Source: Phycisphaeraceae bacterium
GTDB lineage: Bacteria > Planctomycetota > Phycisphaerae > Phycisphaerales > Phycisphaeraceae
Assembly: GCA_046290505.1 (NCBI GenBank)
Contig: JBKAGS010000002.1
Span: 41,790 to 105,789, forward strand
Direction of reading: 5' to 3'
DNA: 64,000 nucleotides
The translations under genes and the position numbers were made by a program. Every line of letters begins with the position of its first letter. Position 1 is the stretch's first letter. Under the pieces are notes generated by a model. That model was not told where the DNA came from. It saw only the letters and a program-made list of their open reading frames with translations, and did not search any database. Positions 22,332-63,623 of this stretch are shown piece after piece.

Positions 22332-23493
22332 TTACGACCTCCGGCTGCCAGAACCGATATTGACTGGCTAAATGTTCGACCAGGAACTTCACCATCTGCT
22401 TTTCTTCATCAGTCGGCTCTGCGATCTCTTCATTGGATAGCGAGCGATGGCTGTAAAAATGCATGATGCGCTTTGCATATGCGGCCTTGTCGCCAGGCAG
22501 CAGGTCCGACCATTGCTGGTAACCTAAGAAGCTGGCGGCCTTCTCATACAAATTTCGCAATAAATTGAAGTGGTATCGCTGCACGGCCCTTTCCTCGACA
22601 GCGCGTTCTATGAGGCGTTTGATATGCAGGTGATAGGAGAAGCTGGTATTTGAGTCGCCGCGCTTAGCCTCAAATTCGAATCCCGCTTTATCAGTGCGCC
22701 GGAGTATGTACCCCTCACTCGGCTTCAGTTCACTGAAAAGTACGTTGTAAAACAACGTGCTGTGCGTCGATATGATGAACTTGAGGCCGGACTGGCTTGA
22801 TTTAATCAGTGCAGATAAGTCAACCGCCAGTTGAATAAGATGGTTTTCATCAAGCGAACTAACCGGGTCATCGATGAAAATGTACTCGAGCGCATCAAAC
22901 TGATTCGCCTCACGTTCGGCAGGCTCGGCGACGTTGAGCACGCCGATCACCTGCTCTAGCACCGCATAGAAGATGCTCCAGATGAAGTTGCTTTCTTCGC
23001 CCTTCGAGATTTTTACGTTGTCCGTTTTCTGATCGTCTCCTCTCTCGAACGAGAAGGTGACTTCCGAGAACGCGGGTATCGTTCGCTCCGTGCCGTCCTG
23101 ATCCGTGATCTTGTAGGCTTCGTTGAACTTTGGCGTGAGCTTGTCGTCGGTATAGCGTTGGAAATGTCCGATCGCGTTTCGGTCTTGGCCCTGTTCGACG
23201 AGGGCCCATTCGGTATAAGTGTTTGGCTGGATACGCAACTTTCTCGCAACGTCTCCATCGAGATCGTTATCCCAATAGAACAGGTCTTCCGTGAAGGCGT
23301 TGTAGTAAAGGATTTTGTTGCGGGCGGGCTGGCCATCCTCCTGATCGTCTGCGGCGACTTGCTTAGGCGCGACTAGTTCCTTGAACTCCCGTGACAGCCG
23401 GGTCTTGCCCGAGCCGTTGAAGGCGTAGATCAGCTGAACCTTCTTGTCGCTGTCTTTGAGCTGCTGTGCGATCTGGGCAAGGGTTTGGCTCAT
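22324..23493 (-). CDS. prrC: PrrC-like ABC-type ATPase / putative anticodon nuclease (AAA_13 family) embedded in the type I R-M operon
   Basis: 389 aa, in the prrC position between hsdS and hsdR. Walker A FNGSGKT (25-31), signature-like ISKGEES, Walker [14 protein letters not shown]-terminal R313-x31-H345-x3-H349 has the same spacing as the PrrC R320/N352/H356 triad as I recall it (N replaced by H). Confidence 0.6.
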
Positions 23494-23494
23494 G

Positions 23495-24115
23495 CTATGC
23501 CGCCGCCTCCTCAGCCTGGGGGAACGTCAATAATTGGTCGCGGTAGTACTCGTATTGCTTGCGACGAGCCTTGATTTCGGCGGGCAAGCCGTCGGTAAGG
23601 TCGTTCACTAGTGCATCAAATTTGTCGAGTATGCCGACGATGCGGTCCTGCTCTGCCCGTGATTTCTTTGGGTCGTCGGGGTAGGGGATGGGGATGCTAA
23701 TCTTGGCCAATTTCTTTGCTGACACGTCGATGACCTTTGCGCCGGTTGCCTGCTTTCTCTTCTGTGCGAAGAAGTGTGGGGTCTGCAGGCAGTAGGATAT
23801 GTACGTTGGGTTCTGCTGATGCTTGAATACGGTTGCGTGACCGCCGGTCACAATTTGGGCATCTCCCAGCCATGCGACCCCTTTGCAAACACCCTCAATA
23901 TCTTCACTTGTATTCGTGATGATCAGGTCGCCCGGGTCAACCTTAGCGAGCTTCTCAGCTTTTTGGGGCGGGATGAATGAGATCGTTTCATTCGCCCATG
24001 TCTTATAGTGGGTGTAGATTTGCCCGTAATGGATACAGCCGACCCCCGACTCGGCGAAGTCAGACTTTGGCATCCCATTGCCGCGAACAAATGTGCCGAT
24101 CTCATCCAAGGTCAT
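23495..24115 (-). CDS. hsdS: Type I R-M specificity subunit, downstream half (TRD2 + distal conserved helix)
   Basis: 206 aa. TRD-like N-terminus MTLDEIGTFVRGNGMPKSDF. Conserved-region C-terminus RAEQDRIVGILDKFDALVNDL...IKARRKQYEYYRDQLLTF. The ATG at 24115 lies 5 nt after the upstream half's stop. Confidence 0.8.
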   Translation of the reverse strand: MTLDEIGTFVRGNGMPKSDFAESGVGCIHYGQIYTHYKTWANETISFIPPQKAEKLAKVDPGDLIITNTSEDIEGVCKGVAWLGDAQIVTGGHATVFKHQQNPTYISYCLQTPHFFAQKRKQATGAKVIDVSAKKLAKISIPIPYPDDPKKSRAEQDRIVGILDKFDALVNDLTDGLPAEIKARRKQYEYYRDQLLTFPQAEEAAA

Positions 24116-24120
24116 CCACC

Positions 24121-24785
<665 letters not shown>

Positions 24786-24789
<4 letters not shown>

Positions 24790-26342
24790 GCCTCTACCTC
24801 CACCTCTTCGATCTGCGCAACGATCTTGTCAATCTCTGTTCGCAAAACGGACTGACGCCTGACGATACCTTTGATGTCTGCATTGAGTTTGGTGATGTCG
24901 ATTACTTCACGTGAATCCTTCGGATCGACATAGCTACTCACCGAGAGGTTATAGTCATTTGCGGCAACATCCTCGAAGCTGATCGACTTGGCAAAGTGGT
25001 CGATGTCAGCCTTTGTATCGAAGGCCTCCATGATGGCTTTGATGTGGGTGTCTTCAAGGACGTTGTTGTTGGTCTTTTTCTTAAAAAGGCCACTGGCATC
25101 GATGAACTGAGTGGTGGTTTCAGTTTTGTGCTTGGAGAGCACCAAAATATTCACGGCGATTGAGGTGCCGTAGAACAAGTTGGGGGCAAGCGAGATGACG
25201 GTTTCGACGTAGTTGTTGTCAACGAGGTACTGGCGGATTTTCTGTTCCGCGCCGCTTCGGTAGAAGATGCCGGGGAAGCAGACGATGGCGGCTCGGCCCT
25301 TGCTGGAGAGGTAGCTGAGGGCGTGCATGACGAAGGCGAAGTCGGCTTTGGACTTCGGGGCGAGCGCGCCCGCGGGGGCGAAGCGTTCGTCGTTGATCAG
25401 GGTGGGGTCGTCCGAACCGATCCACTTCACGGAGTACGGGGGGTTGGAGACGATGGCGTCAAAGGGTTTGTCGCTGCCGAAGTGGGGCTTGAGCAAGGTG
25501 TTGCCGAGCTTGATGTTGAACTTGTCGTAGTTGATGTTGTGCAGGAACATGTTCATACGAGCGAGGTTGTAGGTCGTATGGTTGATTTCCTGGCCGAAGA
25601 AGCCTTCTTCGATGATATGAGCGTCGAAGTGCTTTTTGGCCTGGAGTAGCAGTGAGCCCGACCCGGCAGCGGGGTCGTAGATTTTGTTGACGCTGGTTTG
25701 TTTGTGCATCGCGAGTTGTGCGATGAGGCGAGAGACGTGCTGCGGGGTGAAGAATTCGCCGCCGGACTTGCCGGCGTTGGCGGCGTAGTTGGAGATGAGG
25801 AACTCGTAGGCGTCGCCGAAGAGGTCGATCTGGCTGCCGTGGAAGTCGCCGAAGTCGAGGCCCGCGACACCTTTGAGCACGGCCGCGAGGCGTGTGTTCT
25901 TGTCGGCAACGGTGTTACCCAGGCGGTTGCTGGTGGTATCGAAGTCGGCGAAGAGGCCTTTGATGTCCTCTTCGGAGGCGTAGCCATTAGCGGAGCTTTC
26001 GATGGCAGCGAAGATGGAGGCGAGGTCGGTGTTGAGACTCTCGTTGTCGTTGGCTTTCTTGGTTACGTTGACGAAGAGCTGGCTGGGGTAGATGAAGTAG
26101 CCCTTGGTCTTGACCGCGTCCTCTTTGATCTCGGGGGTGATGATGTCGTCTTCCAACTGGGCATAATTGACGCTTTCATCGTCGGCTTCGATGTAGCTGG
26201 CGAAGTTCTCGCTGATAAAGCGGTAGAACAGCGCGCCGAGGACGTACTGTTTGAAGTCCCATCCATCGACGGCACCGCGGACATCGTTGGCGATGGCCCA
26301 GATGGCTTTGTGCAAGGCGTCTCGTTGTGCTTGACTGGTCAT
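24786..26342 (-). CDS. hsdM: Type I R-M N6-adenine DNA methyltransferase subunit
   Basis: 518 aa. HsdM-type N-terminus ([36 protein letters not shown]). Catalytic motif [11 protein letters not shown]. AdoMet-binding motif [12 protein letters not shown]. Confidence 0.9.
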
Positions 26343-26384
26343 GCGTGTTCGTTTTCTCGGTTCGTCGTTTTACTAGGGGCGTAT

Positions 26385-27440
26385 TTAGTCTGCCTGGTCG
26401 GTATCGCTAGACGCCACGGTCCAGACGCGCTTAAGCGGTATTTCCGCTCTTAAATCGTCGTCGAGTTTGTCGTAGACGGCGAGGAACTGGTCGATCAGGT
26501 CGTTCTGATCCCACAGCCTAACTTTGAAGAAGAGTCGCGGGACCTCGGCCATGATCGTCTTCTTGAATCCGCCCCAACAGACGAGCAGGCCCTGGTCGGC
26601 CCCGACGTGCTGCATCGTGCCGACGAGCTGATCGAGCACGGGGCGTTCCAGTGCCGAGTCCTGGCTTTTTACCTGCACGCAGATGCGCGGCTGGCCGAAG
26701 CCCAGCGTGTCGGGCGCGGCGAGGATGTCGATACCGCCGTCCGCGCCTTTTGTGCTGTGGTGAGTGGTGAAGCCTTGGGCGTTGAGGATCGCTTCGACAA
26801 GAGACTCGAGGCCGTGGCCTTTGTACTGGGCGTAGATCGTCCTGGCGATCTGGTCGCGGGCGATTTGTTCGAGGTCAAACTCGGTTGCCGATTCTTCGTC
26901 GGTGGCGATTTCATCATCCGATGATTCGAGGGCAGGTTTGGCCTTCACGCCGACGGACTTCCAGCCATTGGTCTTCATTGCACGGATGCGGGCCTCGGCG
27001 TCGTTGCGTTTGATCTGGCAGATCGTGGAGAAGGCCCCGAGCGAGTGCAGGAGGTCCTGGTCGAAGTTGGTGCGCGGGATGTCGGTGGCGATCCACTTCA
27101 CGGTGCGGTGGTGGAAGTACGGGTCTTCGGCTTTCGCTTCGTAGGTGTAGTCGCTGGTGATCTCGCCGATATGGATAGTCTTCCGCTTGCTGGGCATGCA
27201 GACCCAGTCGCCCTTAGCCATGCGTTGGGTGAAGGCCCAGATTTGGCCGGAGTGCTGGCGTCGTTTGTTGACGCCCGCCTTGGGGTAGACCTCGGCGAGC
27301 ACGGACATCAGGTCGTCGCGAGTGGTCAGTTTGGCCAGGTTTTTGTTCAGGCCCCACCAGGTTAGATAGATTCGGCCATCATCCAGAAACTTGGATTCGT
27401 GCTCGCAGTGACGTCCGGATCGGTTTAGCCATAGAGCCAT
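26385..27440 (-). CDS. mrr: Mrr-family (type IV-like) restriction endonuclease
   Basis: 351 aa. C-terminal Mrr catalytic core HSTKGADGGIDILAAP...RICVQVKSQ. The N-terminal region is typical of this family (WLNRSGRH.EHE...; TDIPRTNFDQDLLHSLGAFSTICQIKRNDAEARI). GGAG lies 9 nt upstream of the ATG. Confidence 0.75.
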   Translation of the reverse strand: MALWLNRSGRHCEHESKFLDDGRIYLTWWGLNKNLAKLTTRDDLMSVLAEVYPKAGVNKRRQHSGQIWAFTQRMAKGDWVCMPSKRKTIHIGEITSDYTYEAKAEDPYFHHRTVKWIATDIPRTNFDQDLLHSLGAFSTICQIKRNDAEARIRAMKTNGWKSVGVKAKPALESSDDEIATDEESATEFDLEQIARDQIARTIYAQYKGHGLESLVEAILNAQGFTTHHSTKGADGGIDILAAPDTLGFGQPRICVQVKSQDSALERPVLDQLVGTMQHVGADQGLLVCWGGFKKTIMAEVPRLFFKVRLWDQNDLIDQFLAVYDKLDDDLRAEIPLKRVWTVASSDTDQAD

Positions 27441-38802: not shown

Positions 38803-40794
38803 TTAGGCTTCGCCCTTGAACTTCACGCCGCCGCGATATTCCTGAAGGGCGACACCGAAGTCGTGGTAGCCACGCATCTGGATTCCCAGCACGTTGAAGT
38901 CGGCATCTGCGGATTCGACGACCGGTTCCTGTTTGCCGTTGAGGAAGGCGACCTCGATGACCGGCATATCCGCCGGCTCCGCGAGCAGATACCACGCCTT
39001 CGTGCTTGATCCGGTGTACTTGGCGTTGGCCAGATAGCTGGACCGGACGACACGGAACTTGCCGGTGTGCGGGTTGTTTGTCGGGTACTTGGTCTTGCTT
39101 GAGTTGCCGTCTTCCCGCACCTCGGTTGCATTCATCAGTTGCGTCGCCGTGACGAGCAGGCCATTGGGCACAAGGAGGATTGACGGACTGATCGCCATCG
39201 GGTGACCATCGGGGTCGGTCTGGTCGAGGTACAACTGCTCGGCCTGGGTGAGCGAGTCGATACCGAGTGCGGTACTCGCACCTGCTGCGTAATTCCCCCG
39301 TGGCGTGGTGTAGAACGCCGCGTTGTTCAGGAAGGCGGTCCAGAACACGTCATTCAGTTTCAGTGCAGCACCACGGCCGAGGCGTCGAGGAACCGAAGTC
39401 AACGCGCCGAGATCGTCGTTGATCAGGTCGGTGCGGGTCAGGCTGAACATTCGCCCGTAGGTGCGGGCCTGGTTGGTGTAGTTCTCTTCGCCGACCTTAG
39501 CGTGCTTGAGTTCGCCATCCGGACCGACTTCCTCGTACTCGAAACCACCGGTCAGGCGGTAGCTCGTTACTTGCTTAAAGTCCTGGACGTTGCGGGTCGC
39601 GGCGATTGACCGCCAGGCAGATTCGACGGCGGTGAAACCTTCGAGCAGGAACTTGTTGGATGTGTTCGAGAGGATGCCGGGCAGGCTGAAGGTGCTGAAA
39701 GCGGCTTGCAATACGCCGCGCATATCCGCGCGGAAGTTACGCCCGTCATAGCCGTTGGCCCAAGCGGCTTCGAGAAGCAGTTGCTGTAGGCCGATCTGCC
39801 CGCGGAACCGCTGGTCTGCTGCGTCGAGGGTTTGCTCGTCGAACTGTTCCTCTGGCTTCTGAATTCCACCCGCCAGGCAGACGGCAGCGGCTAGGACATG
39901 GGGGAGATTCACGGAGTCATTCCGCTGGCCCGAGCCGGGGGCAGTAGCTTTGGGTCGGCTCGCGCGGAGCACTTCGAGTTCGGCCTTTTCGACGGACCAG
40001 CCTTGCTCAATCGCCTGCGCTGCGATCTCAGCGTGTTTCTCGCCGCAGGTGTTGCGGATCGCCGACTGGCGTCGCAGTTCATCCGCTGCCTGCTTACGGC
40101 TCGCGTTGAGGATGTCCTCGGATTCATCGGACGCCTGAACACTGATATTGTCGGGCTTGGCATCGCTGCTCTTGGCGCGATCGGTCGTGGTGGTTGTGTC
40201 TTGGGATTCGGACATGGTGTGATGTTCCTTGTGTTGTGCTGCGATGGTCGCGGAGGTCGCACCATCCGCACCGAGATCGACGAAGCTGATTTCGCCCAGG
40301 GTGGTCTTGCGGGCGACGTAGACGGGGCCTTCAAATTGACGGCCGTTGACGTTGACGAACTTGCCTGCACGGATCAGTTCGGCGTTCTGAACCGATGCGC
40401 CGATTGATGCTTGCCAGGGGAAGCCACGCTTGCCGCTGGTAACAACCTCTTTCGCGGCAGGCGTATCTCGTGAGATGACCCCCTCGGCGATCAGCTGATT
40501 GCCCTCAGCAGCGATCCGCTCACTGTGGCCGATACCTTGGAATGCGCTGTGCGCGAAACGGATCGGACGGCGTTGGGACGGAATGTGCAGGCCCTGAAGG
40601 TCAACGACAACCGGGTGACGCCATCCGTTGATCCGCATGGCGTCGCCGGTGTATGCGACCATGCGGAACGTCGGCAGCACGGCCTCGCCGTTATCGCTTG
40701 GCTTCGCTGCCTCGACCGAGATCGAGGTTTCCTCGCAGATCAGTGAAAGCGCATCCGGGATTGATTCAGGTTGTTCTACGGTCTGTTCGCTCAT
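38803..40794 (-). CDS. Major capsid protein (Mu gpT-like region) fused to an N-terminal prohead protease/scaffold-like region
   Basis: ATG at 40794 with AGGAGG upstream. About 663 aa. The C-terminal ~330 aa looks capsid-like (ILSNTSNKFLLEGF...NYTNQARTYGRMFSLTRTDLINDDLGAL). No separate protease or scaffold gene lies between portal and capsid. Confidence 0.7.
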   Translation of the reverse strand: MSEQTVEQPESIPDALSLICEETSISVEAAKPSDNGEAVLPTFRMVAYTGDAMRINGWRHPVVVDLQGLHIPSQRRPIRFAHSAFQGIGHSERIAAEGNQLIAEGVISRDTPAAKEVVTSGKRGFPWQASIGASVQNAELIRAGKFVNVNGRQFEGPVYVARKTTLGEISFVDLGADGATSATIAAQHKEHHTMSESQDTTTTTDRAKSSDAKPDNISVQASDESEDILNASRKQAADELRRQSAIRNTCGEKHAEIAAQAIEQGWSVEKAELEVLRASRPKATAPGSGQRNDSVNLPHVLAAAVCLAGGIQKPEEQFDEQTLDAADQRFRGQIGLQQLLLEAAWANGYDGRNFRADMRGVLQAAFSTFSLPGILSNTSNKFLLEGFTAVESAWRSIAATRNVQDFKQVTSYRLTGGFEYEEVGPDGELKHAKVGEENYTNQARTYGRMFSLTRTDLINDDLGALTSVPRRLGRGAALKLNDVFWTAFLNNAAFYTTPRGNYAAGASTALGIDSLTQAEQLYLDQTDPDGHPMAISPSILLVPNGLLVTATQLMNATEVREDGNSSKTKYPTNNPHTGKFRVVRSSYLANAKYTGSSTKAWYLLAEPADMPVIEVAFLNGKQEPVVESADADFNVLGIQMRGYHDFGVALQEYRGGVKFKGEA

Positions 40795-42295
40795 CGCTTG
40801 GCGACTCCTCCTCTCGTTCGTCTTCGGTGTCGTTTGCCTTGGGTTCTGTGTCGACCGCGCCACTGGTCAGGCCGAGTTCCTTCATCAACGCCAACTCCTT
40901 GGCGCGCTGACGAAGCTCCTGTTCCCAGTCGAGGCCAGCTTTGGCGTACTCGGACGCGAGCGTGGTGGTATTGCTGTTGAGTCGTGTTGCTTGCGCGCCG
41001 GCTTCCTTGGCCGGATCGACATGCTCGAATCCGTCCCAGAACCATTGGTGCGGATAGCCATCGGCTTCAGCAACCACGGTGCGGACGGACTGCGGGAGCA
41101 GCCCTTCTATGAGCACGGCCTCATTGATCCAAGCACGGAAGATTCGGTCGAGCGCGATGTCCGCGAGGTGGGACTGGTCGATCCGGATTGCCTTGAAGAA
41201 CGATTGGTGGTCCAACCGACCCGAGGCGTAGTTGTAGCCGGCGCTGTTGCCCGAAGCGATGTTGAACGGCATGTTCAATGGCCGGGCGATCTCGTTGAGC
41301 ACCTTGGAGGTGTAGTCGCCATACATCGTGGTCGGCTGCTCGGCCTTGATCTGGCCGACCTTCCAGCCGTAGGGCATCGTGAGCCAAAGCCCACGGTCCA
41401 TTTCGACCTGGTCCATCGGTTCAACGCTCGCGGCTTCACTGTCCGCCGGGGCGTCGGTATAGATCACACCGCTGGGGAGTGCGGCCTGCTCCGCGCTCGA
41501 CAGCACCGCGAGTGAGTAGCGGCGAAGCATGGCGAAGAGCGATAGCGAACTGGTGATCTCCGGCACACCCCGCGTCTGGCCCGGCCGTTCGGCACGGTAC
41601 AGATGTACGACGGCGTCGGCCGGGATGACATCGAAGTCATCCGTGCCATCATCCCCTGGTCCAGCCTTGAAGAATGAAGTGTCGCCGGGATGACGTTTGA
41701 GAACGAAGTATGCGAGAGGGTTGCCGAACTCGTCGTACTGGATGCCGTCAATAAGGTATGCGTCGTCACGGAACCGCCACGGTGTAGCGACTTGATCGGA
41801 TTCAACGAGCCGCAAGTCGAGCTTGATCGGTGCGTCTACGCGAGGGTTGGTCGCCAGCACACCGAAGACCTCGCCCGATTCGCACTGGCTGACCCGCATG
41901 GTCCAGAGTTTGTGAGCCAACCGGACGGACTTCGCCCAGCGCGAGAACTCGCGTTCGATGACGCGGTTCGCCTCGGGGTCCTCCGTCAGCATCTGCAGAC
42001 GCGGGCCGGTGCCGATGACGTAGTTGGCGAGCGTGTTGACGATGCCTTTGGCGTAGCCGTTGTTGGCGACTTCGTAGCGTGCGCGGTTGCGAAGCGTGCG
42101 TCGCACCTGCGGGTTCATCGCCGCGTTGGCGGACAGCGCATCGGCGTTCGCCCAGTGGCGTCGGTTCTCGTCGGTGGTCTGGGCCGCGTCGTAACGGGCA
42201 CGCAGGCCGGGCAGATTCGCCACGGCAAAACGCAGCGGTCCACGCTGGGTACGCGGGGCTTTGCCGAATCCGAGTTGGCTTAACCATTGCAGCAA
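40766..42295 (-). CDS. Portal protein (lambda-family-like)
   Basis: 509 aa. RNRARYEVANNGYAKGIVNTLANYVIGTGPRLQM matches the lambda portal family pattern. TTG start with GGAG 7 nt upstream. Confidence 0.8.
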   Translation of the reverse strand: MLQWLSQLGFGKAPRTQRGPLRFAVANLPGLRARYDAAQTTDENRRHWANADALSANAAMNPQVRRTLRNRARYEVANNGYAKGIVNTLANYVIGTGPRLQMLTEDPEANRVIEREFSRWAKSVRLAHKLWTMRVSQCESGEVFGVLATNPRVDAPIKLDLRLVESDQVATPWRFRDDAYLIDGIQYDEFGNPLAYFVLKRHPGDTSFFKAGPGDDGTDDFDVIPADAVVHLYRAERPGQTRGVPEITSSLSLFAMLRRYSLAVLSSAEQAALPSGVIYTDAPADSEAASVEPMDQVEMDRGLWLTMPYGWKVGQIKAEQPTTMYGDYTSKVLNEIARPLNMPFNIASGNSAGYNYASGRLDHQSFFKAIRIDQSHLADIALDRIFRAWINEAVLIEGLLPQSVRTVVAEADGYPHQWFWDGFEHVDPAKEAGAQATRLNSNTTTLASEYAKAGLDWEQELRQRAKELALMKELGLTSGAVDTEPKANDTEDEREEESPSDERTDRRTT

Positions 42296-42313
42296 GCGAG
42301 GCTCCGAAGGGGT

Positions 42314-42523
42314 TCAGGACGCTCCGGGTGGAACGATCTTGGTCATGCGGAGGCCCAAGCCCTTTTTGCTCGCCGCTTTGGATGAGAGGTAGCGGTCCGC
42401 TTCGATCTGGTCTCGCAGCGGATGCTGCTTGACCGATTGGCCGTCGACCGCCGCCTCGGCTGGCGAGGCGGCGTTGTCCTTGATCTTGTTGGCCAGGTCA
42501 TCGGGCATGGGTGGGTCCGTCAC
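42314..42523 (-). CDS. Small gpW-like head-tail joining protein (assigned by position and size)
   Basis: 69 aa, immediately upstream of the portal gene as in the lambda A-W-B order. GTG start, with an alternative ATG at 42508. Confidence 0.4.
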   Translation of the reverse strand: MTDPPMPDDLANKIKDNAASPAEAAVDGQSVKQHPLRDQIEADRYLSSKAASKKGLGLRMTKIVPPGAS

Positions 42524-42663
42524 CAGCTACATCAGCAGGTGAAAGACCAAACCAACGCTCAATGTTTTGACGAGGTGATTTCGTTCCAGATTTGGAACGA
42601 CAGCGATCAGTGGAGCCTATATTGCGGTGGCAACCGGGAACAGTGCGGTGAATACCGGGCGGA

Positions 42664-42702
42664 TAAAAAGGCACACACTTATGAGGATTTGTGTCCCTTT
42701 TT
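42664..42702 (-). terminator. Rho-independent (bidirectional-looking) terminator closing the moron
   Basis: aaaaaggcacaca-cttatgaggatt-tgtgtcccttttt: a 7-bp stem with one bulge, flanked by an A-run and a T-run. Confidence 0.6.
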
Positions 42703-42894
42703 GTCCAAACCAGGCTTGATCTTGCGGCTTAAACGGCGAAGAGATCGCGGAGCACATCAAAGAAAGGTGCGATTTGATCGGGCTCGCGCCACAGCGGGTG
42801 CTGCCGCATTGCCAGTATTACCGTCGCCAAACAGAACGCGATTGGATGCATTCCCAATCGCAAGATGAATGTCCAGCATGCTGGTGCTCAAGGA

Positions 42895-43929
42895 TCAGCC
42901 TGCACCAATCATCGCCTCTCGCAGCAGTAGTTTTTCCCGCAAAGGCTCAGCGGCTTCATGACTGCGTTTGTCGCCATCGGCCATCTCCAGCCAGACCTGT
43001 ATTGGTGAGGCGACGAGCTTATCGCGGGCATCGAAGAACACCCGCTGGTCATCGGTCTGGATCAGCTTCAGGTTTGGGAACGCAGTTGTCTGCTTGGGCT
43101 CGTCACCGATAGCCGACAAGACTTCTTGGATCGGGCGGCGGGTATACAGCGACACGGCTTTGTCTCCGCCGAAGACCACGTAGCTGGCGGCACTGGCCAT
43201 GCCGGTCTTGACCACGTCCCCAGCGAAGTTGCCGAACAGCCGATCCAGGAGTTCATCTTCACGGATCATACACTTGCCGGTCCATGTGGCTTTTACCTTC
43301 GGCGGCTCGTACCCGTCGGTCAGACCTTCCATCAACGCGCGCGGATCGATGACCTGCACTGATCGCTTATTCGAGCGTGATACAGCCCCTTCTTTATCCA
43401 GACGTTTGAGTACCTTCGAGACAGTGCTCATGGCGAGCTGCCCGCCTCGGGCTTGGATCAACTCGAGCACTGCGCTGACCGAGTCGATCTCGTCACGGAG
43501 CATCAACGCTCGCGGCACCAGCGAACTGTCGCCGCGATAGACGGACTTGATCCCCCGGCGCTCGGGATAGCGGTTCGGTTCACCGGATCGGTTGTAGAAC
43601 GATTGACCAAGGAACACGACCCCGTTGCCGCACAAGTCGATTCCGCTGATCCGGTCACTCATCAAACGGTTGAGCTTGTCTTGGTCGTAGTACGGAGCGA
43701 CCAACAGCGGGCGGGGCCCTGGCGTGTCTCTCTCCTGTCCGATCGCTCGGTCCAGAGTCCGGGGGTTCGCGTCAGGCAGGGGCACCACGCGGAACACACT
43801 CGGCTGATCATCATTGACCCCAAACAGGGTGACCGTTCGGTCAGAGGGATAGCCCTCGGCCTCGATCCTCAGTGGGATCATGTTCAGGCCGTCCTGCTCG
43901 ATGCGGGCTTGTACGTCGTCGGTGTTCAT
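42895..43929 (-). CDS. Moron-encoded protein of unknown function with a central wHTH-like segment
   Basis: ATG at 43929 (AGGAAA upstream). 344 aa. Segment QLAMSTVSKVLKRLDKEGAVS looks like a winged helix. The C-terminal ASPIQVWLEMADGDKRSHEAAEPL is reminiscent of AbiEi-type antitoxin C-termini (weak, from memory). AT-richer than the flanks. Confidence 0.6.
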   Translation of the reverse strand: MNTDDVQARIEQDGLNMIPLRIEAEGYPSDRTVTLFGVNDDQPSVFRVVPLPDANPRTLDRAIGQERDTPGPRPLLVAPYYDQDKLNRLMSDRISGIDLCGNGVVFLGQSFYNRSGEPNRYPERRGIKSVYRGDSSLVPRALMLRDEIDSVSAVLELIQARGGQLAMSTVSKVLKRLDKEGAVSRSNKRSVQVIDPRALMEGLTDGYEPPKVKATWTGKCMIREDELLDRLFGNFAGDVVKTGMASAASYVVFGGDKAVSLYTRRPIQEVLSAIGDEPKQTTAFPNLKLIQTDDQRVFFDARDKLVASPIQVWLEMADGDKRSHEAAEPLREKLLLREAMIGAG

Positions 43930-43946
43930 TTTCCTATCATGGTATA

Positions 43947-43964
43947 TTTTCCCGCACGGGAAAA
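43947..43964. promoter_or_regulatory. Perfect 8-2-8 inverted repeat TTTTCCCG-CA-CGGGAAAA (candidate operator) in the moron promoter region
   Basis: Read directly. Further TTTTCC/GGAAAA half-sites lie at 43929..43934, 43977..43985 and 44011..44016. Confidence 0.55.
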
Positions 43965-44041
43965 CAAACGAAAACAGGAAATTTTCTGCAAACACATATT
44001 CCCTCGGCTCGGAAAACCGCTAATTCCAGAAAAAACTGTCC

Positions 44042-44176
44042 TTACATCCGCTCCCGCGTTGTCACCCGCTTCCCGCAGTGGCGGCAACGGCGGACCCGCT
44101 GGATGTGTCCAGGGCGCTGGCGGGTGTACCAGACCGGCAGATGCCGACACCCGCATTTGGGGCATGCCAAGCCCAC
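44042..44176 (-). CDS. Small C4 zinc-ribbon protein (NrdR/Ogr-like finger)
   Basis: From GTG at 44176: VGLACPKCGCRHLPVWYTRQRPGHIQRVRRCRHCGKRVTTRERM. This fits the pattern CPxCG..x..TR...R.RRC..CG.R.TT.E. No clear SD, so the start is uncertain. Confidence 0.4.
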   Translation of the reverse strand: MGLACPKCGCRHLPVWYTRQRPGHIQRVRRCRHCGKRVTTRERM

Positions 44177-44220
44177 GTCACGATTCTGTGAAGGGGTAGA
44201 TTCCGGTGATTGATTAATTT

Positions 44221-46533
44221 TCAATGCCAACCCCCGGCTAAGGATGAGAGGCGGATCGGCTGAGGCTTTGCTTCTCGAGTCTGCAGTTCGACACCGAAGC
44301 GCACCCCGCACATGCTCGCGGCGACGGCGCAGCCGACCAGACAGTCGAGCCAGTGGTTGTCGGGCTTGCTGGGTTTGATCGACCACTCGCAGACCGATCG
44401 ACCGTGCCCCTCGGTCCGGACGAAGGTCTCTGCTCCGGCGACATGGTCGGCGAGCAGCCGGTGCTCACCTTTCGCACTGGCCTTGCCGAAGATCGTCATC
44501 GCTCCGCGATCCCCAGAGCTCGTTGCGAGTCGAGCGTGCAGAAAGCTCTTCCAGAAATTGGTATCGATCATCACGTGCCGCAGTTCACTCGTGCGAGACA
44601 CGTTAGGCACGTACCAGTGATGGCCGTGACGTTCACCACGTTTGCGGCGGTAGGTGCTCATCGGTTTCTGGCCGGCGCGGATGCCCACTCCCTTTGATGG
44701 CATGACCACGCCTGATCCGCCGGGGAGTTGAAGGCAGGCGTTCTCGATCACGCCGGGCAGGTAACCCGCATCGACCAGGCATCGTTCGATCTGCGCGACA
44801 CCACCACCGCCCGCGATCGACCATTGCGCGGAGAGCAGCTTCGGCAGCAACTCCATCAGCCCGGCCTGCACCGCGCCCTCGATCCCCGCACCAGTGAACC
44901 GACCGGCCAGGGTCTTATTCGCATCCCTCAATGTGAAGTAGCGACGCCGTTGGTCGGGATAGGTGCCGTAGTCGATGACGTAGCCGGTGAAGTCGGGCTC
45001 CCACGCGCAGACCGCGTAGTACAACAGCTTCTCTTGCACGTCGATGAATGCAGTCACGCAGTTCGCTGACTTGGGCACCTGCATCCGCGGGCGACCGTTG
45101 ATTTTGCTCGCCACCTGGTCGGGGGTCAGCAAGTCCTCGTCCAACTGCGCGCTCAGCGGCTCGTTCTGATACTCCGCGAAGAACGCTTCTTCGTCCCGCA
45201 GCTTGAGGTTCATCGCGTGCTGCAGGGCCGAGAGTTCGTCCGCGTTGAAACGCTCGGGCCATGCGGTCTGTGCGCCACGGTCCATCTTCGCGCGGTGCTC
45301 ATCATAAAACGCGGTCGCACGCTTGCCGCCGTCTCCCTCGCGCAGGCCCTCGGCCCGGAGTTGAGCGTACTGGTCCCAGAGCTTTTCCGCTTCGGTGCTG
45401 GCGGGGAAGGCGTAGACCATCTTCGTGCATTCGCCTTGCCACTCGGGGTTCTTCTCGCGGTCGAGGATCTGGTCGGCCAGGTCGTCGTGATAAATCTTGG
45501 TGCAGGTCATGAAGCCCGCGATCTTCACGTTCGGCCCGGCCATGCCCAGCACGTCACCATTCAAGATCGAGAGCCGGTGCTTGGTCTGCGTGGGGGAGGC
45601 GGCGGATTGTCGGGTCTGCGGGTCGTCGAGGATGACCAGCGATGGGCGGACGACGGTGCCGTCGAGCTTGGTGTGGTGCTGGCCACGGATGTTCGAGTCC
45701 AGGCCGGCCACGGTGATGATCGCGCCCGACGATGGCGAGCCCTCCATCGTCGGCATGACCAGTCGGTCAGCCGCCCAGGTGATGTACGTCGGCTTGCCGT
45801 TGCAGAGTTGGCCCGCCTGCTTGCGTGCGTTGTTTTCGAGCTTGCGGATCGGGTAGATCGCCTCGGGGAAGTCTTCGAGCAGGCGTTCGTTGCCGAGCAT
45901 CTCGCGGCGGATCGCGTCGAGCATCATCTTCGCCTGGTCCTCGGCCGAGCCGATCAGACAGATGTAGTCGCGGTAGCCGCAGAGCAGCGCCCACAACCCC
46001 GCCGCCCGGCAGAGCGTCGTCTTGCCCGAGCCGCGTGGCATTGCGAAGGCGAACAAGCCGCCCTCGAGCACCGACCGCTCGATCTTCTCGATGATGCGCA
46101 GGTGGTCCTCGCTCCACGGCAGACTGAACGCGGCAGGGAAGTAGGTCGTGCAGAAGGCCTCGAAGCTCTTCTCGCAGCGACGGCGGCGAGCGGCGTTGAC
46201 CACCTCCGGTGGCGGGCCGATGTCGCGGCCGATGCGGCTAGCGGCGAGCTTGCGTTCGAGGTCGCGGCGCAGGCGTGCTTCGTAGGCGCTGCCGGTCTCG
46301 GCGGGATCGGCGCGATCCGCATCTTCATCGCGCCGTCGGGCCATCCACGCAACGTACTTGATGAGGTTGATGCGCTTGCCGTCCGGCGAGGTCACACGCA
46401 GGCCCGCCTCGTTGAGCTGTCGATGCAGGCGTGGCGCATTCGTTACCGCGCCCAACGGCGTGCTGTTGAGTAGGCGCACCAGCTGCGTCGGGCTGAGGTT
46501 CTGCGGATCGAGTTGGCGGCGGGGATCAGGCAT
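44221..46533 (-). CDS. terL: Terminase large subunit
   Basis: 770 aa. Walker A in FAFAMPRGSGKTTLCRAAGLW, Walker B-like LVILDDPQ. C-terminal nuclease-like half. Positioned upstream of gpW-like and portal. Confidence 0.8.
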   Translation of the reverse strand: MPDPRRQLDPQNLSPTQLVRLLNSTPLGAVTNAPRLHRQLNEAGLRVTSPDGKRINLIKYVAWMARRRDEDADRADPAETGSAYEARLRRDLERKLAASRIGRDIGPPPEVVNAARRRRCEKSFEAFCTTYFPAAFSLPWSEDHLRIIEKIERSVLEGGLFAFAMPRGSGKTTLCRAAGLWALLCGYRDYICLIGSAEDQAKMMLDAIRREMLGNERLLEDFPEAIYPIRKLENNARKQAGQLCNGKPTYITWAADRLVMPTMEGSPSSGAIITVAGLDSNIRGQHHTKLDGTVVRPSLVILDDPQTRQSAASPTQTKHRLSILNGDVLGMAGPNVKIAGFMTCTKIYHDDLADQILDREKNPEWQGECTKMVYAFPASTEAEKLWDQYAQLRAEGLREGDGGKRATAFYDEHRAKMDRGAQTAWPERFNADELSALQHAMNLKLRDEEAFFAEYQNEPLSAQLDEDLLTPDQVASKINGRPRMQVPKSANCVTAFIDVQEKLLYYAVCAWEPDFTGYVIDYGTYPDQRRRYFTLRDANKTLAGRFTGAGIEGAVQAGLMELLPKLLSAQWSIAGGGGVAQIERCLVDAGYLPGVIENACLQLPGGSGVVMPSKGVGIRAGQKPMSTYRRKRGERHGHHWYVPNVSRTSELRHVMIDTNFWKSFLHARLATSSGDRGAMTIFGKASAKGEHRLLADHVAGAETFVRTEGHGRSVCEWSIKPSKPDNHWLDCLVGCAVAASMCGVRFGVELQTREAKPQPIRLSSLAGGWH

Positions 46534-46771
46534 CGGGTTCGGACGGTTCCATATTCAGCCAGGCGGCGTAGTGCACGAGGTTGAGTCGATCCCCACCCCC
46601 GGGGCCGGGTTGCCGGGGTGCCCCCTCGGCCAGGTGGCGGCGGATCGTGGCCTCGGGCACGCCTAGCGCCCGGGCCAGTTCCGCGACCGACATCGAGGCC
46701 GGGTTGACCGGGGCCTGGGGGCCGTCTTCGGGGATTTCGGGGCCCGGGGGCGGGGGTGTTTCCGTGGGCAA
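46526..46771 (-). CDS. Small HTH DNA-binding protein (candidate small terminase subunit)
   Basis: 81 aa. TTG start with AGGAG upstream. HTH MSVAELARALGVPEATIRRHL. Overlaps the terL start by 8 nt. Confidence 0.45.
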   Translation of the reverse strand: MPTETPPPPGPEIPEDGPQAPVNPASMSVAELARALGVPEATIRRHLAEGAPRQPGPGGGDRLNLVHYAAWLNMEPSEPDA

Positions 46772-60438: not shown

Positions 60439-60867
60439 TTAGGGGCTGCCGATCTGGCGGTTAGATGGCAGGCGAGCCCACCATGCCCGCTGCTCATCCC
60501 AGTCCACGATCTTCATGATCGGCTTGAGCTGCCGCTCTTGGACGCGGTCTTTGCCCGACATGGTTGGCGGCAGATTCAGGATCGCTTCCTGAATATCCGG
60601 AGCCAGATGCAGCAGGTTCATGATCTGTGTGACTCGGGCCCGGCTGACGTGGCTGAGCCGGGCGATCTCGGCCTGGTTCTCGACAACGCCGTCGTCGATG
60701 AGTTGCTGGAACCGGACCGCGAGTGCCATCAGGCGGGAGATGCGCGGAACCCTCCCCTGGCCGGTTGGCGACGGCTTGCTCTGGACCGGGAGTTTGCTGC
60801 GTCGCGCACGGTGCTCTCGGCCGAACCCGACCTTCTTGGTGACTACGAACGTGTTTGAATTCGTCAT
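60439..60867 (-). CDS. HTH protein commonly linked to large serine recombinases
   Basis: 142 aa. ISRLMALAVRFQQLIDDGVVENQAEIARLSHVSRARVTQIMNLLHLAPDIQEAIL. ATGA overlap with the recombinase stop. Confidence 0.6.
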   Translation of the reverse strand: MTNSNTFVVTKKVGFGREHRARRSKLPVQSKPSPTGQGRVPRISRLMALAVRFQQLIDDGVVENQAEIARLSHVSRARVTQIMNLLHLAPDIQEAILNLPPTMSGKDRVQERQLKPIMKIVDWDEQRAWWARLPSNRQIGSP

Positions 60868-62447
60868 GCTGTTACCTCTTCATGTTGTTGGCCGAGACTG
60901 GCGGAGCGGAAGGCGACGGATACCGAGTCGTTTTCGCCGTCGTAATCGACACGCTCGATCAGCATCTGCACGATGCTCGTCTGCTCGGCCGGGCTGAGTG
61001 ATTCCCACACCGGATCGAACGCTTCGATCGCTTTGGCGATAGCTCGGTCATCGACGAGTTTTCGCTCGAGGTCGATGATCTTGCTGCCGATCTGCGTGAC
61101 CTCCTGCTCGGCCTGGGTCAGTTCATCCTGCAACTCCGCGAGTTGGTCGGTGCCGGCACCGATCAGACCAGCCTTGGGGGCAAGCTCTCGGATTTCCTCG
61201 GCGATACGCTTGGCGTTCTGCTTGGCCGCGTCGTGTTCGATCCTAAGTTCATCGATCGCGTCGGTGATCTGTTCCTGCGCGGCGTAGAGCACGTCGCGGA
61301 ACATCTGCGAGCTTCTCCCGACCTCCCGAATCTGATCGACGACAAATTGCTCGAGCGCTGGTGCGGGCACGGACGCGGTCGGGCAGCTGTCCCAACCCTT
61401 CTTCTGCGCGTTGGCGCAGACGTAGTAGCGGTAGCGTGTGGTTGCCTTGCCGTTCTTTCGCTTGGTCGTGAAGTGGTGGGTCATCGCGACGCCGCAGGAG
61501 GCGCACTGCACCAGGCCCCGCAACATGGCGTTGTTCTTATTTCGCCCCTTGGCGTACTTGCCACCACTGCGTTTGTTGCTTCGCAAGAGGGCTTGGACAT
61601 TGTTGTAGAGGTCCAGCGGCACGATCGCGTCGTGTTCACCGTCGTAGACGCTGTCGCCGTGCGTGATCTTGCCGATGTAGACCACGCTGCTGAGCAGGCG
61701 GTGCAGAGCGGGCTTATCAAAGGCTTTCCCGCCCATGTCCCGGCCCTTCTTCGTGGTCCACCGCTTGTTCCGCCAGCCCCGACGGTTAAGTTCTTTTACG
61801 GCGGGCATCAACGAGCCCTCTTCCAAGAACAACTCAAAGATCTGTACAACCCGCTTGGCCTCCTTCGGGTTTGGCTCGATACGTGACCCGGATGGGCTAG
61901 TGACGATGTTGTATCCCAGCAGCGGCCAGCCCCCGGACCACTTCCCTTTACGACGAGCGGCGGCGATCTTGTCTCGGGTCCGCTCGGAGATGATTTCCCT
62001 TTCGAATTGGGCGAAGGACAGGAGAATGTTGAGCGTGAGCCGGCCCATCGAATGGGTCGTGTTGAACTGCTGGGTGACCGAAACGAACGAGACCTTGTGC
62101 TTGTCGAACACCTCCATCATGCGGGCGAAATCGAGAAGCGAGCGGCTCAGGCGGTCTACCTTGTAGACCACAACACAGTCCACCAGCCCGGCCTCGATGT
62201 CGGCGGTGAGCTGCTTAAGCGCAGGCCGGTCCATATTCCCGCCGGTGTATCCGCCGTCGTCGTAACGCTGAGGCAGGCAGGTCCATCCTTCGTGACGCTG
62301 GCTGGCGATGTAGGACTCGGCGCTTTCGCGTTGCGCGTCGAGTGAGTTGAAGTCGAGTTCCAGCCCCTCGTCCGTGCTCTTGCGGGTATAGATCGCACAG
62401 CGGATCAGGGGTGGGAGCTTTGGTTTGTTTGTTCGTCGTTCAATCAT
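60864..62447 (-). CDS. Large serine recombinase (integrase)
   Basis: ATG at 62447 forms an ATGA with the DUF2924 stop. IRCAIYTRKSTDEGLELDFNSLDAQRE (catalytic Ser region) and VVVYKVDRLSRS. Recombinase and Zn-ribbon region (VQCASCG...YYVC), then a coiled-coil C-terminus. Confidence 0.85.
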   Translation of the reverse strand: MIERRTNKPKLPPLIRCAIYTRKSTDEGLELDFNSLDAQRESAESYIASQRHEGWTCLPQRYDDGGYTGGNMDRPALKQLTADIEAGLVDCVVVYKVDRLSRSLLDFARMMEVFDKHKVSFVSVTQQFNTTHSMGRLTLNILLSFAQFEREIISERTRDKIAAARRKGKWSGGWPLLGYNIVTSPSGSRIEPNPKEAKRVVQIFELFLEEGSLMPAVKELNRRGWRNKRWTTKKGRDMGGKAFDKPALHRLLSSVVYIGKITHGDSVYDGEHDAIVPLDLYNNVQALLRSNKRSGGKYAKGRNKNNAMLRGLVQCASCGVAMTHHFTTKRKNGKATTRYRYYVCANAQKKGWDSCPTASVPAPALEQFVVDQIREVGRSSQMFRDVLYAAQEQITDAIDELRIEHDAAKQNAKRIAEEIRELAPKAGLIGAGTDQLAELQDELTQAEQEVTQIGSKIIDLERKLVDDRAIAKAIEAFDPVWESLSPAEQTSIVQMLIERVDYDGENDSVSVAFRSASLGQQHEEVTA

Positions 62448-62980
62448 CGGGCCCGCGATCCCTTCTGGTTTTGCTTCTTCGGCGGGGTGAGCCCGAAGAA
62501 GAGGTAGCCGTTCCAATGGCTGCCGGTGATCGCCTTGGCGACCGCACTCAGCGACTTGTATATCTGCCCGTCCATCTCGAAGCCGACAGGCATGACGGTG
62601 ACAGAGTAGTTCGTGCCTTTGAATGTTCGAGTGAGCACGGTGCCGGGGACGGGCAGACGATCATCTTCGATCTTAAGAGTGCCGGTCCTGACCTCGCAGG
62701 TCGGGTCCAGCCCGCCCTGGCGTTCCCGAAACGCTGGCGGGGGTGTTGTCCGCACGTCGGCGTCGCGGGCCAATTCAGATGCACGCGCCCGGATGCGCTT
62801 GGCGCGCTCCGCGAGGTCGCCCTCGGCCTGGGCCTGTAGCCGCCAGGCGATCCGTCTGAATAGGTACTCGCGGTGTCCGGTGGGGTTCGTCTCGCCGAAC
62901 AATTCGATGTGCTGCCGACGCAGCTGCGTGACGGACATCTTGCGCAGCTCGGCGATCTTTCGTTTGAGGTCGAGGTCCAT
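62444..62980 (-). CDS. DUF2924-like protein (usual upstream partner of serine recombinases)
   Basis: 178 aa. MSVTQLRRQHIELFGETNPTGHREYLFRRIAWRLQAQAEGDL. Confidence 0.65.
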   Translation of the reverse strand: MDLDLKRKIAELRKMSVTQLRRQHIELFGETNPTGHREYLFRRIAWRLQAQAEGDLAERAKRIRARASELARDADVRTTPPPAFRERQGGLDPTCEVRTGTLKIEDDRLPVPGTVLTRTFKGTNYSVTVMPVGFEMDGQIYKSLSAVAKAITGSHWNGYLFFGLTPPKKQNQKGSRAR

Positions 62981-63404: not shown

Positions 63405-63554
63405 GTTCTCCGCCTCGTTAACACCTCGGTAAACGCGAGAACAGAGTGTGCGCCGTAAGTCGTTGTCGTAACGAGCGAAACGTGGCGGGGTTGCGGACGG
63501 CTTGATTCGCGCAAGAAAAAACCGTCAGGCTTTCGCTTTGACGGTGGAAGCTCC
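63405..63554. repeat. Right copy of the diverged direct repeat (region immediately 3' of tRNA-Asn)
   Basis: See 18975..19123. Same anchors and spacing, with the exact 14-mer at 63454..63467. Confidence 0.7.
63516..63544 (-). terminator. Rho-independent terminator of tRNA-Asn
   Basis: The minus strand reads ccgtca-aagcgaaagcc-tgacgg followed by TTTTTT, starting 7 nt after the tRNA 3' end. Confidence 0.7.
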
Positions 63555-63623
63555 CCCGGCTGGACTCGAACCAGCAACCTGCGGATTAACAGTCCGACGC
63601 TCTACCGATTGAGCTACAGGGGA
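63551..63623 (-). tRNA. tRNA-Asn: tRNA-Asn (anticodon GUU), 73 nt, CCA not encoded
   Basis: Hand-folded cloverleaf. Acceptor UCCCCUG/CGGGGGA, D arm GCUC/GAGC, anticodon loop CUGUUAA, variable loop AGGUU, T arm GCUGG-UUCGAGU-CCAGC, discriminator G. Confidence 0.9.

Follow-up and report, generated by a model that had tools for sequence, protein, structure and literature searches.

What lies between the terminase and portal genes of the prophage in this Phycisphaeraceae genome, and is it a defence system? The stretch of 64,000 nucleotides analysed here, referred to as the window (contig JBKAGS010000002.1 of assembly GCA_046290505.1), contains on its minus strand the order TerL, gpW-like gene and portal, and gene calls together with family scans of the window show that this order is broken by an insert, which includes an open reading frame (ORF) for a 344-residue protein. 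A preliminary description of this DNA had noted the interruption of the packaging genes by AT-richer DNA, which is borne out by a GC content of 56.5% in positions 42524-44041 and of 41% in the 112-bp regulatory spacer within it, against 62-65% in the flanks (TerL 64.7%, portal 62.2%), and it had regarded the insert as a good candidate for an uncharacterised superinfection-exclusion or defence cassette. We consider it likely that the insert is a decayed AbiE-type toxin-antitoxin (TA)/abortive-infection cassette of the COG4861 plus COG4849/DUF1814 subclass, carried as cargo by a Phycisphaerae-type (Planctomycetota) prophage. The gene that remains is most likely an orphan autorepressor/antitoxin whose defence function has been lost, and the cassette is probably ordinary cargo that has been disarmed and not a new defence system.

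The 344-residue protein and its partner gene

The 344-residue protein has homologues in at least 234 clusters at 90% identity and in 3188 representatives of 50% clusters (E up to 1e-3), and species-representative genomes hold 383 loci of the family, mostly in Planctomycetota, with others in Latescibacterota, Armatimonadota, Acidobacteriota, Melainabacteria and further phyla. The relatives are numbered here L001-L172 and so on, and counts of phage loci come from 80 related IMG/VR contigs (78 for the gap between the zinc-ribbon and gpW genes). The closest relatives are in L172 (90% amino acid identity) and in L005, L002, L003 and L001 (83-85%); L090 is a Phycisphaeraceae metagenome-assembled genome. 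Wherever the flanking DNA of a close relative extends far enough, namely in L172, L005, L002, L003, L001 and L090, a gene for a protein of 280-289 residues comes next and overlaps it. Among the 77 genomic family members with room for such a neighbour, 65 have a nucleotidyltransferase (NTase) gene directly downstream and 12 are solitary. The solitary antitoxins, downstream of which no NTase is detectable, are those of L094, L100, L118, L119, L129, L131, L133, L138, L140, L143, L145 and L160, a set to which Kolteria novifilia Pan216 contributes both of its copies and Singulisphaera acidiphila DSM 18658 its one. In L126, L142 and L164 the match to the toxin hidden Markov model (HMM) spans part of the model only. 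L007 was considered as a second case of toxin loss on the basis of a 109-residue gene call and was rejected, as translation gives an intact toxin ORF.

The partner family matches PF12281 (NTP_transf_8) in 28 and PF08843 (AbiEii) in 23 of 59 members, and 'AbiEii/AbiGii toxin' is the NCBI name of one member. Its motifs GGG, DLD and KLTAYRDR are invariant or nearly so, with G28, G29, D61, D63, K191, L192, A194 and R196 invariant, and KLTAYRDR fits KLxAaxxR, the COG4849 motif of Dy et al. (PMC3985639). The model of the toxin (mean predicted local distance difference test, pLDDT, 92.9) has MenT3/TglT Rv1045 as its best match in the PDB (E 2e-4, probability 1.0), and PDB sequences searched with a toxin alignment as profile yielded nothing. 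Hence the partner is a DUF1814/COG4849 nucleotidyltransferase, by homology a toxin of AbiE type.

The relatives likewise connect the 344-residue protein itself to the AbiE antitoxins. PF09952 (AbiEi_2) is matched over the C-terminal domain by 16 of 70 relatives at E <0.01, four of them above the curated cut-off; specifically, relatives at 37-40% identity to the protein (E 1e-43 to 1e-50) pass with 26-27.5 bits where 21 are needed, over model positions 1-140 of 143. A tblastn search of plasmids with the protein as query gave 13 records, of which the 12 listed cover 76-82% of the query at 24-27% identity, and most of these matches sit on genes labelled 'type IV toxin-antitoxin system AbiEi family antitoxin' by PGAP. 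In the two plasmid records that were opened, the next gene is a 'nucleotidyl transferase AbiEii/AbiGii toxin family protein' in an overlapping layout of 350 plus 289 residues. Pairwise BLASTP against the 'AbiEi family antitoxin' of Sphingobium pTK2 gives E 1e-15 over residues 74-337, which bears out the faint AbiEi-like character that had been suspected in the C-terminus. The protein of the window has no PF09952 match even at E 10, and Pfam gives only weak helix-turn-helix matches at residues 150-200 (HTH_Crp_2, 21.4 bits against 27); AbiEi_4 has no match in it, and a tblastn search of 50,697 deposited phage genomes with the antitoxin found no match. From these similarities we place the 344-residue protein in the COG4861/AbiEi_2 branch of the AbiE antitoxin-regulators as a diverged member. 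This branch is not an uncharacterised system, as had been supposed for the cassette: COG4861-COG4849 is a strongly associated pair (STRING 99%) that Dy et al. (2014, PMC3985639) had already described bioinformatically and set apart by sequence from the COG5340-COG2253 AbiE that has been tested, and its plasmid copies are named by PGAP. The MenA2-MenT2 pair of M. tuberculosis (Rv0837c-Rv0836c) is also of COG4861-COG4849 type (PMC7450476).

The AlphaFold2 (AF2) model of the protein (pLDDT 89.5, predicted template modelling score 0.66) has three domains, as follows.

Residues ~1-125: N-terminal alpha/beta domain (AF2 model), which holds the positions best conserved across the family (D98, N102, G103, G116 and N119, invariant)
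Residues ~133-205: central winged helix-turn-helix (wHTH), helices 133-144, 151-160 and 167-179, beta wing 183-193
Residues ~206-340: C-terminal AbiEi_2-like alpha/beta domain (AF2 model)

The central winged helix, which had been noticed in the sequence, is thus present in the model, and residues of its recognition helix 167-179 (TVSKVLKRL) are invariant (S171 and K172) or almost so. Foldseek comparison of the model with the PDB and BFVD returns wHTH regulators only, with probability up to 1.0, the N- and C-terminal domains matching nothing in either set, and the antitoxin alignment, run as a profile against PDB sequences, gives weak wHTH matches only. Hence, of the profile and structure searches that had been suggested, those with profiles link the protein to AbiEi_2 through its relatives, and those with structures recognise the wHTH alone. 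Because they recognise only this part, the protein, as modelled, is no structural copy of the COG5340 AbiEi. In sequence, COG5340 AbiEi and COG4861 have no identity (PMC3985639). The N-terminal domain of ~125 residues may, judging from the model, be a new domain and perhaps one for sensing. A PD-(D/E)xK assignment for it was considered and not adopted, the hints being very weak (PaqCI in Foldseek with probability 0.12-0.18, and a TnsA-like Pfam match of E 0.14 in one relative).

The toxin relics and the operator array

The features of the insert and its borders are the following, given from the upstream to the downstream end of the cassette.

42601-44041, minus strand: inserted cassette (moron), comprising the regulatory region, the gene of the antitoxin, the relics of the toxin gene and a terminator-like hairpin; ~2.1 kb when intact
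43930-44041, minus strand: AT-rich spacer, 112 bp
43999-44016, minus strand: distal operator, decayed (TTTTCC-N7-GGGAA in the window)
43977-43986, minus strand: middle palindrome GAAAATTTCC, centre at -52 from the ATG, with one change from the GGAAATTTCC of all relatives
43969-43974, minus strand: position of the -35 element, TTTTCG in the window against TTGACT in L172, L005, L002 and L001 (3 of 6 positions changed)
43947-43964, minus strand: proximal operator, the perfect palindrome TTTTCCCG-N2-CGGGAAAA (N2 = CA), centre at -26 from the ATG
43927-43934, minus strand: half-site GGAAAATG, overlapping the start codon
42895-43929, minus strand: 344-residue ORF, AbiEi_2/COG4861-type antitoxin and transcriptional regulator by homology
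42524-42894, minus strand: stretch of ~370 bp with no convincing gene
42822-42905, minus strand: N-terminal toxin relic, its start overlapping the antitoxin stop as in the relatives
42821-42826, minus strand: deletion junction, from blastn against L172, L005, L002 and L001
42729-42821, minus strand: C-terminal toxin relic, encoding a product that ends in AMRQHPLWREPDQIAPFFDVLRDLFAV before the stop codon, in a frame different from that of the N-terminal relic
42661-42706, minus strand: terminator-like hairpin with 17-nt arms, a 12-nt loop and flanking A-run and T-run
42581-42600, minus strand: inverted repeat of the phage backbone, TCGTTCCA-N4-TGGAACGA, immediately before gpW and bordering the hotspot on the right

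When the window is compared with L172 by blastn, two blocks are aligned (44300-42821 with L172 48-1528, and 42826-42250 with L172 2216-2793) that overlap by 6 nt, and the segment of the toxin gene missing between them is ~687 bp (L172 1529-2215). The same gap of ~690 bp is seen by blastn against L005, L002 and L001. What remains next to the antitoxin gene of the window is no intact DUF1814-superfamily NTase gene but only two relics that are out of frame with one another. The N-terminal relic has a 1-nt deletion (CCC to CC, ~42892) that shifts the frame and a change of the catalytic GGG to GDG; its translation is MLDIHLAIGNASNRVLFGDG where L172 has MLDIWHAMGDAADRVLLGGG. The possible 40-codon ORF with a hydrophobic N-terminus that had been mentioned for this stretch is no gene but the last 27 codons of the toxin read through the deletion junction, and is explained by the C-terminal relic. 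In a search of the whole 64-kb window with the toxin HMM, the C-terminal relic is the sole match (E 1.7e-6) and no cognate toxin is found elsewhere, and the toxin motifs hG[GS], DhD and KLxAaxxR are absent from the window, with GDG standing for GGG in the relic and the rest deleted. Judged on this alignment, the window lineage appears to have lost the middle of the toxin gene, so that the cassette would be a degenerate instance of the AbiE type. No defence is to be expected from it because only the repressor/antitoxin arm remains, and the view of a self-contained defence cassette does not hold since the effector, the toxin gene, has been destroyed by the deletion.

Substitutions private to the window lineage number 30 in 1035 positions of the antitoxin gene (2.9%), 1 in 84 of the C-terminal relic (1.2%) and 11 in 58 of the N-terminal relic (19%), counts that are ambiguous as to purifying selection after the deletion. 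In the N-terminal relic the changes fall at 42822-42879, and 9 of the 11 are from G/C to A/T. With these changes the sequence has acquired a perfect hairpin of 8 bp (42838-42861), behind which comes a T-rich tail, and the cluster of mutations may have originated from break-associated repair, from a patch copied from another allele or from selection for a new terminator. The antitoxin ORF keeps all residues that are invariant in the family, with a ratio of non-synonymous to synonymous substitution rates (dN/dS) of 0.11-0.16, the same as in intact cassettes.

Upstream of the antitoxin gene the DNA evolves as non-coding sequence, with kept motifs, indels and no kept frame, in agreement with the start at ATG 43929 that had been assigned. 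The perfect 8-2-8 palindrome at 43947-43964 had been located exactly; it is unique in the window and is matched in 0 of 100 shuffles, even with 2 mismatches allowed. The additional GGAAAA half-sites that had been noted are there as well, as four of the 11 GGAAAA hexamers of the window lie within 88 bp (43929-44016). The proximal palindrome spans the promoter spacer and a -10-like GAAAAT (43946-43951), and the half-site at the start codon lies in an imperfect extended inverted repeat of 25 nt (43930-43954 / 43957-43981). The arms of the proximal palindrome are invariant in L172, L005, L002 and L001, and L090 keeps 7 of 8 positions in each arm (TTTCCCG-TGT-GGGAAAA) while the surrounding DNA has diverged. 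In the relatives the distal operator reads TTTTCC-N6-GGAAAA or TTTCCCG-AT-CGGGAAA, with its centre at -78 from the ATG. The sites are exactly 26 bp apart from centre to centre, at -78, -52, -26 and the start codon (window 43927-44016; L005 4921-5010; L002 and L001). The middle site has half-sites of opposite polarity (GGAAATTTCC), and the distance of 52 bp between the distal and proximal sites is ~5 helical turns.

This arrangement extends far beyond the close relatives. A TTTCY-N2-10-RGAAA repeat occurs at least once within 136 nt upstream in 68 of 77 genomic family loci from several phyla, its density being 8.98 per kb in the upstream DNA and 0.037 per kb in the remainder of these loci (~240-fold), and its preferred positions are 18-22 nt, which is the position of the window site, and 67-90 nt before the start. 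The proteobacterial plasmid copies, including those of Mesorhizobium and Sphingobium, have TTTTCA...TGAAAA upstream. Conservation of this kind across the family argues that the palindrome is the operator of the family, as its operator-like appearance had suggested. The promoter that had been surmised with it is found by the promoter scan in L005, as TTGACT-17-GAAAAT at the equivalent place; in the window, owing to the mutated -35 hexamer, the scan gives no sigma-70-like promoter. In the regulatory region of the window, then, the proximal operator is intact, the -35 element and the distal repeat have decayed, and the middle palindrome has one change.

The terminator-like structure that had been described at 42664-42702 is a real hairpin with slightly wider limits (42661-42706; -19.8 and -21.5 kcal/mol with z of -3.1 and -3.9 on the two strands). 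It fails a simple terminator scan owing to the 12-nt loop. L172 and L090 retain it after their intact toxin genes, where both of its arms show changes, and we take it as belonging to the cassette.

The insertion site and its prophage setting

The genes around the insert are listed below in the order of transcription.

46526-46771, minus strand: small helix-turn-helix, terminase-small-like protein
44221-46533, minus strand: TerL (GpA_nuclease; PHROG terminase large subunit)
44042-44224, minus strand: C4 zinc-ribbon ORF, 60 codons
42314-42523, minus strand: gpW-like gene of 69 residues (flank), adjoining the portal gene in 75 of 80 related loci
40766-42295, minus strand: lambda-type portal
38803-40863, minus strand: fusion of an N-terminal domain without a family match and a major capsid protein (Phage_capsid_4, residues 388-681)

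The 69-residue gpW-like gene has no match in Pfam or PHROG, TerL has no cultured relative above ~25% identity, hence no annotated phage is available for comparison, and an Rfam scan of 42200-44400 gave nothing meaningful. By its gene content the window is a prophage, one end of which has a large serine recombinase, a DUF2924 gene and tRNA-Asn. The likely integration end comprises the recombinase at 60864-62516, the DUF2924 gene at 62444-62980 and tRNA-Asn at 63550-63623. Beyond the tail-gene end of the prophage lies HsdR, the R subunit of a Type I restriction-modification system (1033 residues, 19230-22331), within 19230-27440 on the minus strand and with more ORFs after it; these may be prophage cargo or host genes.

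The preliminary description had counted a zinc ribbon as part of the cassette. The C4 ribbon is real, although its gene has 60 codons (44042-44224, minus strand) and not 44, as it starts with a TTG at 44224 that lies across the stop codon of TerL (TTGA in the window, ATGA in relatives). The ORF and its ATGA overlap are kept in L002-L006 and L010, and a homologue lies directly 3' of TerL in 66 of 80 related IMG/VR contigs. Because it is found there whether cargo is present or absent, we regard the zinc-ribbon gene as a core phage gene, apparently translationally coupled to TerL, that borders the hotspot on the left and lies outside the insert. The protein matches Pfam Zn_ribbon_NrdR at fold level (31.0 bits, cut-off 27.2), but in its 60 residues there is no ATP-cone, TIGR00244 scores 13 where 125 are needed and Ogr/Delta gives no match, so that it is not a member of the NrdR or Ogr family.

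The insert itself is absent from L010, whose TerL is 86% identical and which is from the same metagenome as L005, and from L011. These empty sites have TerL, zinc ribbon, gpW and portal in succession with ~90-130 nt from the zinc-ribbon gene to gpW, and a GTTCCA-N4-nGnAAC repeat before gpW comes within ~10 nt of the zinc-ribbon stop. The corresponding GTTCCA-N4-TGGAAC repeat upstream of gpW is present in L005 (6930-6951), L090 and L172 and is degenerate in the empty-site L010; it could be a regulatory or a recombination site. Across the 78 related loci the gap between the zinc-ribbon and gpW genes ranges from 86 to 3466 nt; 40 loci have <400 nt there, and another 33 have 1 kb or more. The cargo in these 33 large gaps (loci L013-L089, from the zinc-ribbon gene to gpW) includes canonical AbiEii (Pfam 2.5e-45; PADLOC 1e-110) with AbiEi_4, PIN and SocA/Panacea proteins, a DpnII-type restriction endonuclease, HNH, NucS/PD-(D/E)xK and Endonuclease_NS nucleases, and the PADLOC candidates PDC-S02, PDC-S11, PDC-M19 and PD-Lambda-2. 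The comparison of this gap in related prophages that had been advised thus finds both empty sites and loci with other TA or defence cargo, and the proposal of a moron at a phage hotspot stands: the insert appears to be cargo of moron type in a real hotspot between the TerL-coupled zinc-ribbon gene and gpW.

The cassette of L001 (JGI 3300037791, a contig of 570 kb) has 84% identity to that of the window and an intact toxin, and is near a related TerL. Two reverse-strand genes lie between TerL and the cassette, then come non-phage genes (Clp_N, HAD hydrolases), and no gpW or portal was detected. Homology with the cassette begins at window position 44058 and takes in just the last 17 bases of the zinc-ribbon gene, and the zinc ribbon is missing beside the cassette. 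The L001 cassette has therefore moved, or its prophage has been rearranged or degraded.

Alternative readings, mechanism and significance

Several observations weigh against a decayed AbiE-type cassette and have to be set beside the evidence above. The deletion is known from one metagenomic contig. The 344-residue protein is below every threshold of Pfam, NCBIfam, PHROG and PADLOC, the last three giving no match at all, so that its placement in the family depends on transitive homology and one pairwise BLASTP. In Foldseek there is no full-length match to the solved AbiEi or Rv2827c structures among the top 50, the wHTH alone being matched, and the structural match between the toxin and MenT3 has a low TM-score (0.39). 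MenT2, the only COG4861-paired toxin that has been tested, was non-toxic in M. smegmatis or E. coli (PMC7450476), and the COG4861-COG4849 subclass is without demonstrated toxicity or anti-phage phenotype, so that the toxin mechanism is by analogy. Finally, the low dN/dS and the intact invariant residues of the antitoxin could equally mean retained function, as purifying selection and recent loss of the toxin are inseparable here.

This last point leads to the alternative that the orphan antitoxin has been retained for some use that it has without its toxin, such as neutralising related DUF1814 toxins or repressing AbiE-like operons of the host or of competitors in counter-defence or anti-addiction, which we regard as rather unlikely. 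The intact ORF under apparent constraint would fit it, as would the proximal operator and terminator that are intact though the toxin is destroyed, and the 12 of 77 genomic family members that are likewise solitary. Conservation of the half-site and of the recognition helix across phyla makes cross-regulation physically plausible, and there is a precedent in the phage orphan antitoxin that acts against DarTG1 as counter-defence (PMC11825919). Nevertheless, the single private change in the C-terminal relic suggests that the deletion may be recent and that the antitoxin has had no time to decay, the decay of the -35 element and distal operator argues against strong selection on expression, there is no cognate toxin in the window to neutralise, and MenA antitoxins show no cross-talk between pairs (PMC7450476). 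That the toxin-less protein is a retained prophage function which silences AbiE-like operons or neutralises NTase toxins of the host or rival elements is, in our estimate, quite improbable; if it were true, the ~15% of family members that are solitary would represent a recurrent, selected state and a widespread uncharacterised class of TA/abortive-infection systems would be seen to be disarmed.

Two further explanations seem to us very improbable. The first takes the wHTH protein for a sensor-effector, acting alone or together with the zinc ribbon and made from its own promoter in the lysogen, and the insert for a self-contained, so far uncharacterised cassette for superinfection exclusion or defence. 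The hotspot does carry defence genes in relatives, a regulatory region and a terminator-like hairpin come with the cassette, and the highly conserved N-terminal domain (D98, N102, G103, G116, N119) is without function assignment; but the protein comes from the upstream gene of a conserved pair, in which the NTase encoded downstream is the plausible effector, the zinc ribbon belongs to the phage core whether cargo is there or not, PADLOC matches none of it and the promoter consensus is lost in the window. The other would have the toxin deletion as an assembly or consensus artefact, the real prophage having an intact and functional AbiE-like pair, and we give it hardly any weight. It draws on the single contig of metagenome type and on a protein cluster that holds this source alone, and is opposed by the lineage-specific frameshift and the 11 private substitutions beside the junction, which look like a true pseudogene history, and by both flanks being colinear with those of relatives.

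Based on the decayed-cassette reading and the intact copies in relatives, we put forward a hypothetical mechanism for this type of cassette. The intact operon would consist of the TTGACT-17-GAAAAT promoter, the array of TTTTCC...GGAAAA sites at 26-bp spacing, the gene of the 344-residue antitoxin, the overlapping gene of the 289-residue toxin and the hairpin terminator. AbiEi binds paired inverted repeats and autorepresses abiE (PMC3985639), and by analogy with AbiEi and with Rv2827c at inverted repeats the 344-residue protein would bind the palindromes as a dimer via its wHTH and repress its own promoter. Likewise, as proposed from the MenT toxins and AbiEii, the toxin of intact copies would block translation by the addition of nucleotides to tRNA 3' ends, and the antitoxin would neutralise it post-translationally, possibly via induced auto-phosphorylation of the toxin; tRNA modification and antitoxin-induced toxin auto-phosphorylation are treated in bioRxiv 10.64898/2026.01.19.700257. 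In intact copies phage infection would, by the same analogy, release the toxin. The toxin-less copy in the window would give neither abortive infection nor host addiction.

The intact relatives share with COG4861-COG4849 pairs an antitoxin of ~345-365 residues with an internal wHTH and AbiEi_2 C-terminus, a toxin of ~289 residues with hG[GS], DhD and KLxAaxxR, overlapping, translationally coupled genes, and an inverted-repeat operator with a TTTTC half-site, which is present before the Mesorhizobium and Sphingobium plasmid copies as well. In contrast to these pairs, the window protein is 24-27% identical to the plasmid proteins and below the Pfam cut-off, and its cassette is inside a phage late operon with the toxin deleted. 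With canonical AbiE (Lactococcus / Streptococcus agalactiae; COG5340-COG2253), MenA3-MenT3 and MenA4-MenT4 the cassette type has in common a bicistronic order of a wHTH antitoxin, with autorepression at paired promoter inverted repeats (here predicted from sequence), and then a DUF1814 NTase toxin, and TA/abortive-infection logic; the best structural match of the partner toxin is MenT3. It differs in that canonical AbiEi (COG5340) has an N-terminal wHTH and a C-terminal domain whereas here the wHTH is central, behind the conserved domain of ~125 residues, and canonical AbiEi_4/AbiEii pairs are a separate cargo type at the same hotspot in other relatives. Like lambda morons and the P2/P4 hotspots (PMC9122126), the insert is a discrete, AT-richer segment between conserved late genes, with an operator region (its promoter consensus seen in relatives and lost in the window) and a terminator-like hairpin; it is absent from close relatives, and its site holds alternative TA, restriction and defence cargo in other relatives. 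Unlike them, its position is between the zinc-ribbon gene and gpW, its host phylum is Planctomycetota and the window copy is degenerate. Anti-DarT1 orphan antitoxin-like enzymes (PMC11825919) are similarly phage-borne antitoxin homologues without a toxin, but the window orphan appears to have arisen by deletion inside a resident TA cassette and not by capture of a lone antitoxin.

The essence of these findings is that ~1.4 kb of 'hypothetical' prophage DNA can now be named, and that what was tempting to call a new defence system is probably a disarmed copy of a known TA class. The COG4861-COG4849 branch, so far without a demonstrated toxic or protective effect, gains intact, closely related phage-borne pairs (L172, L005), together with a defined, family-wide operator array (TTTTCC...GGAAAA at 26-bp spacing) and a natural toxin-less allele. 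In addition, a cargo hotspot between the TerL-coupled zinc-ribbon gene and gpW is defined in uncultured Planctomycetota phages, and this hotspot could be mined for defence genes.

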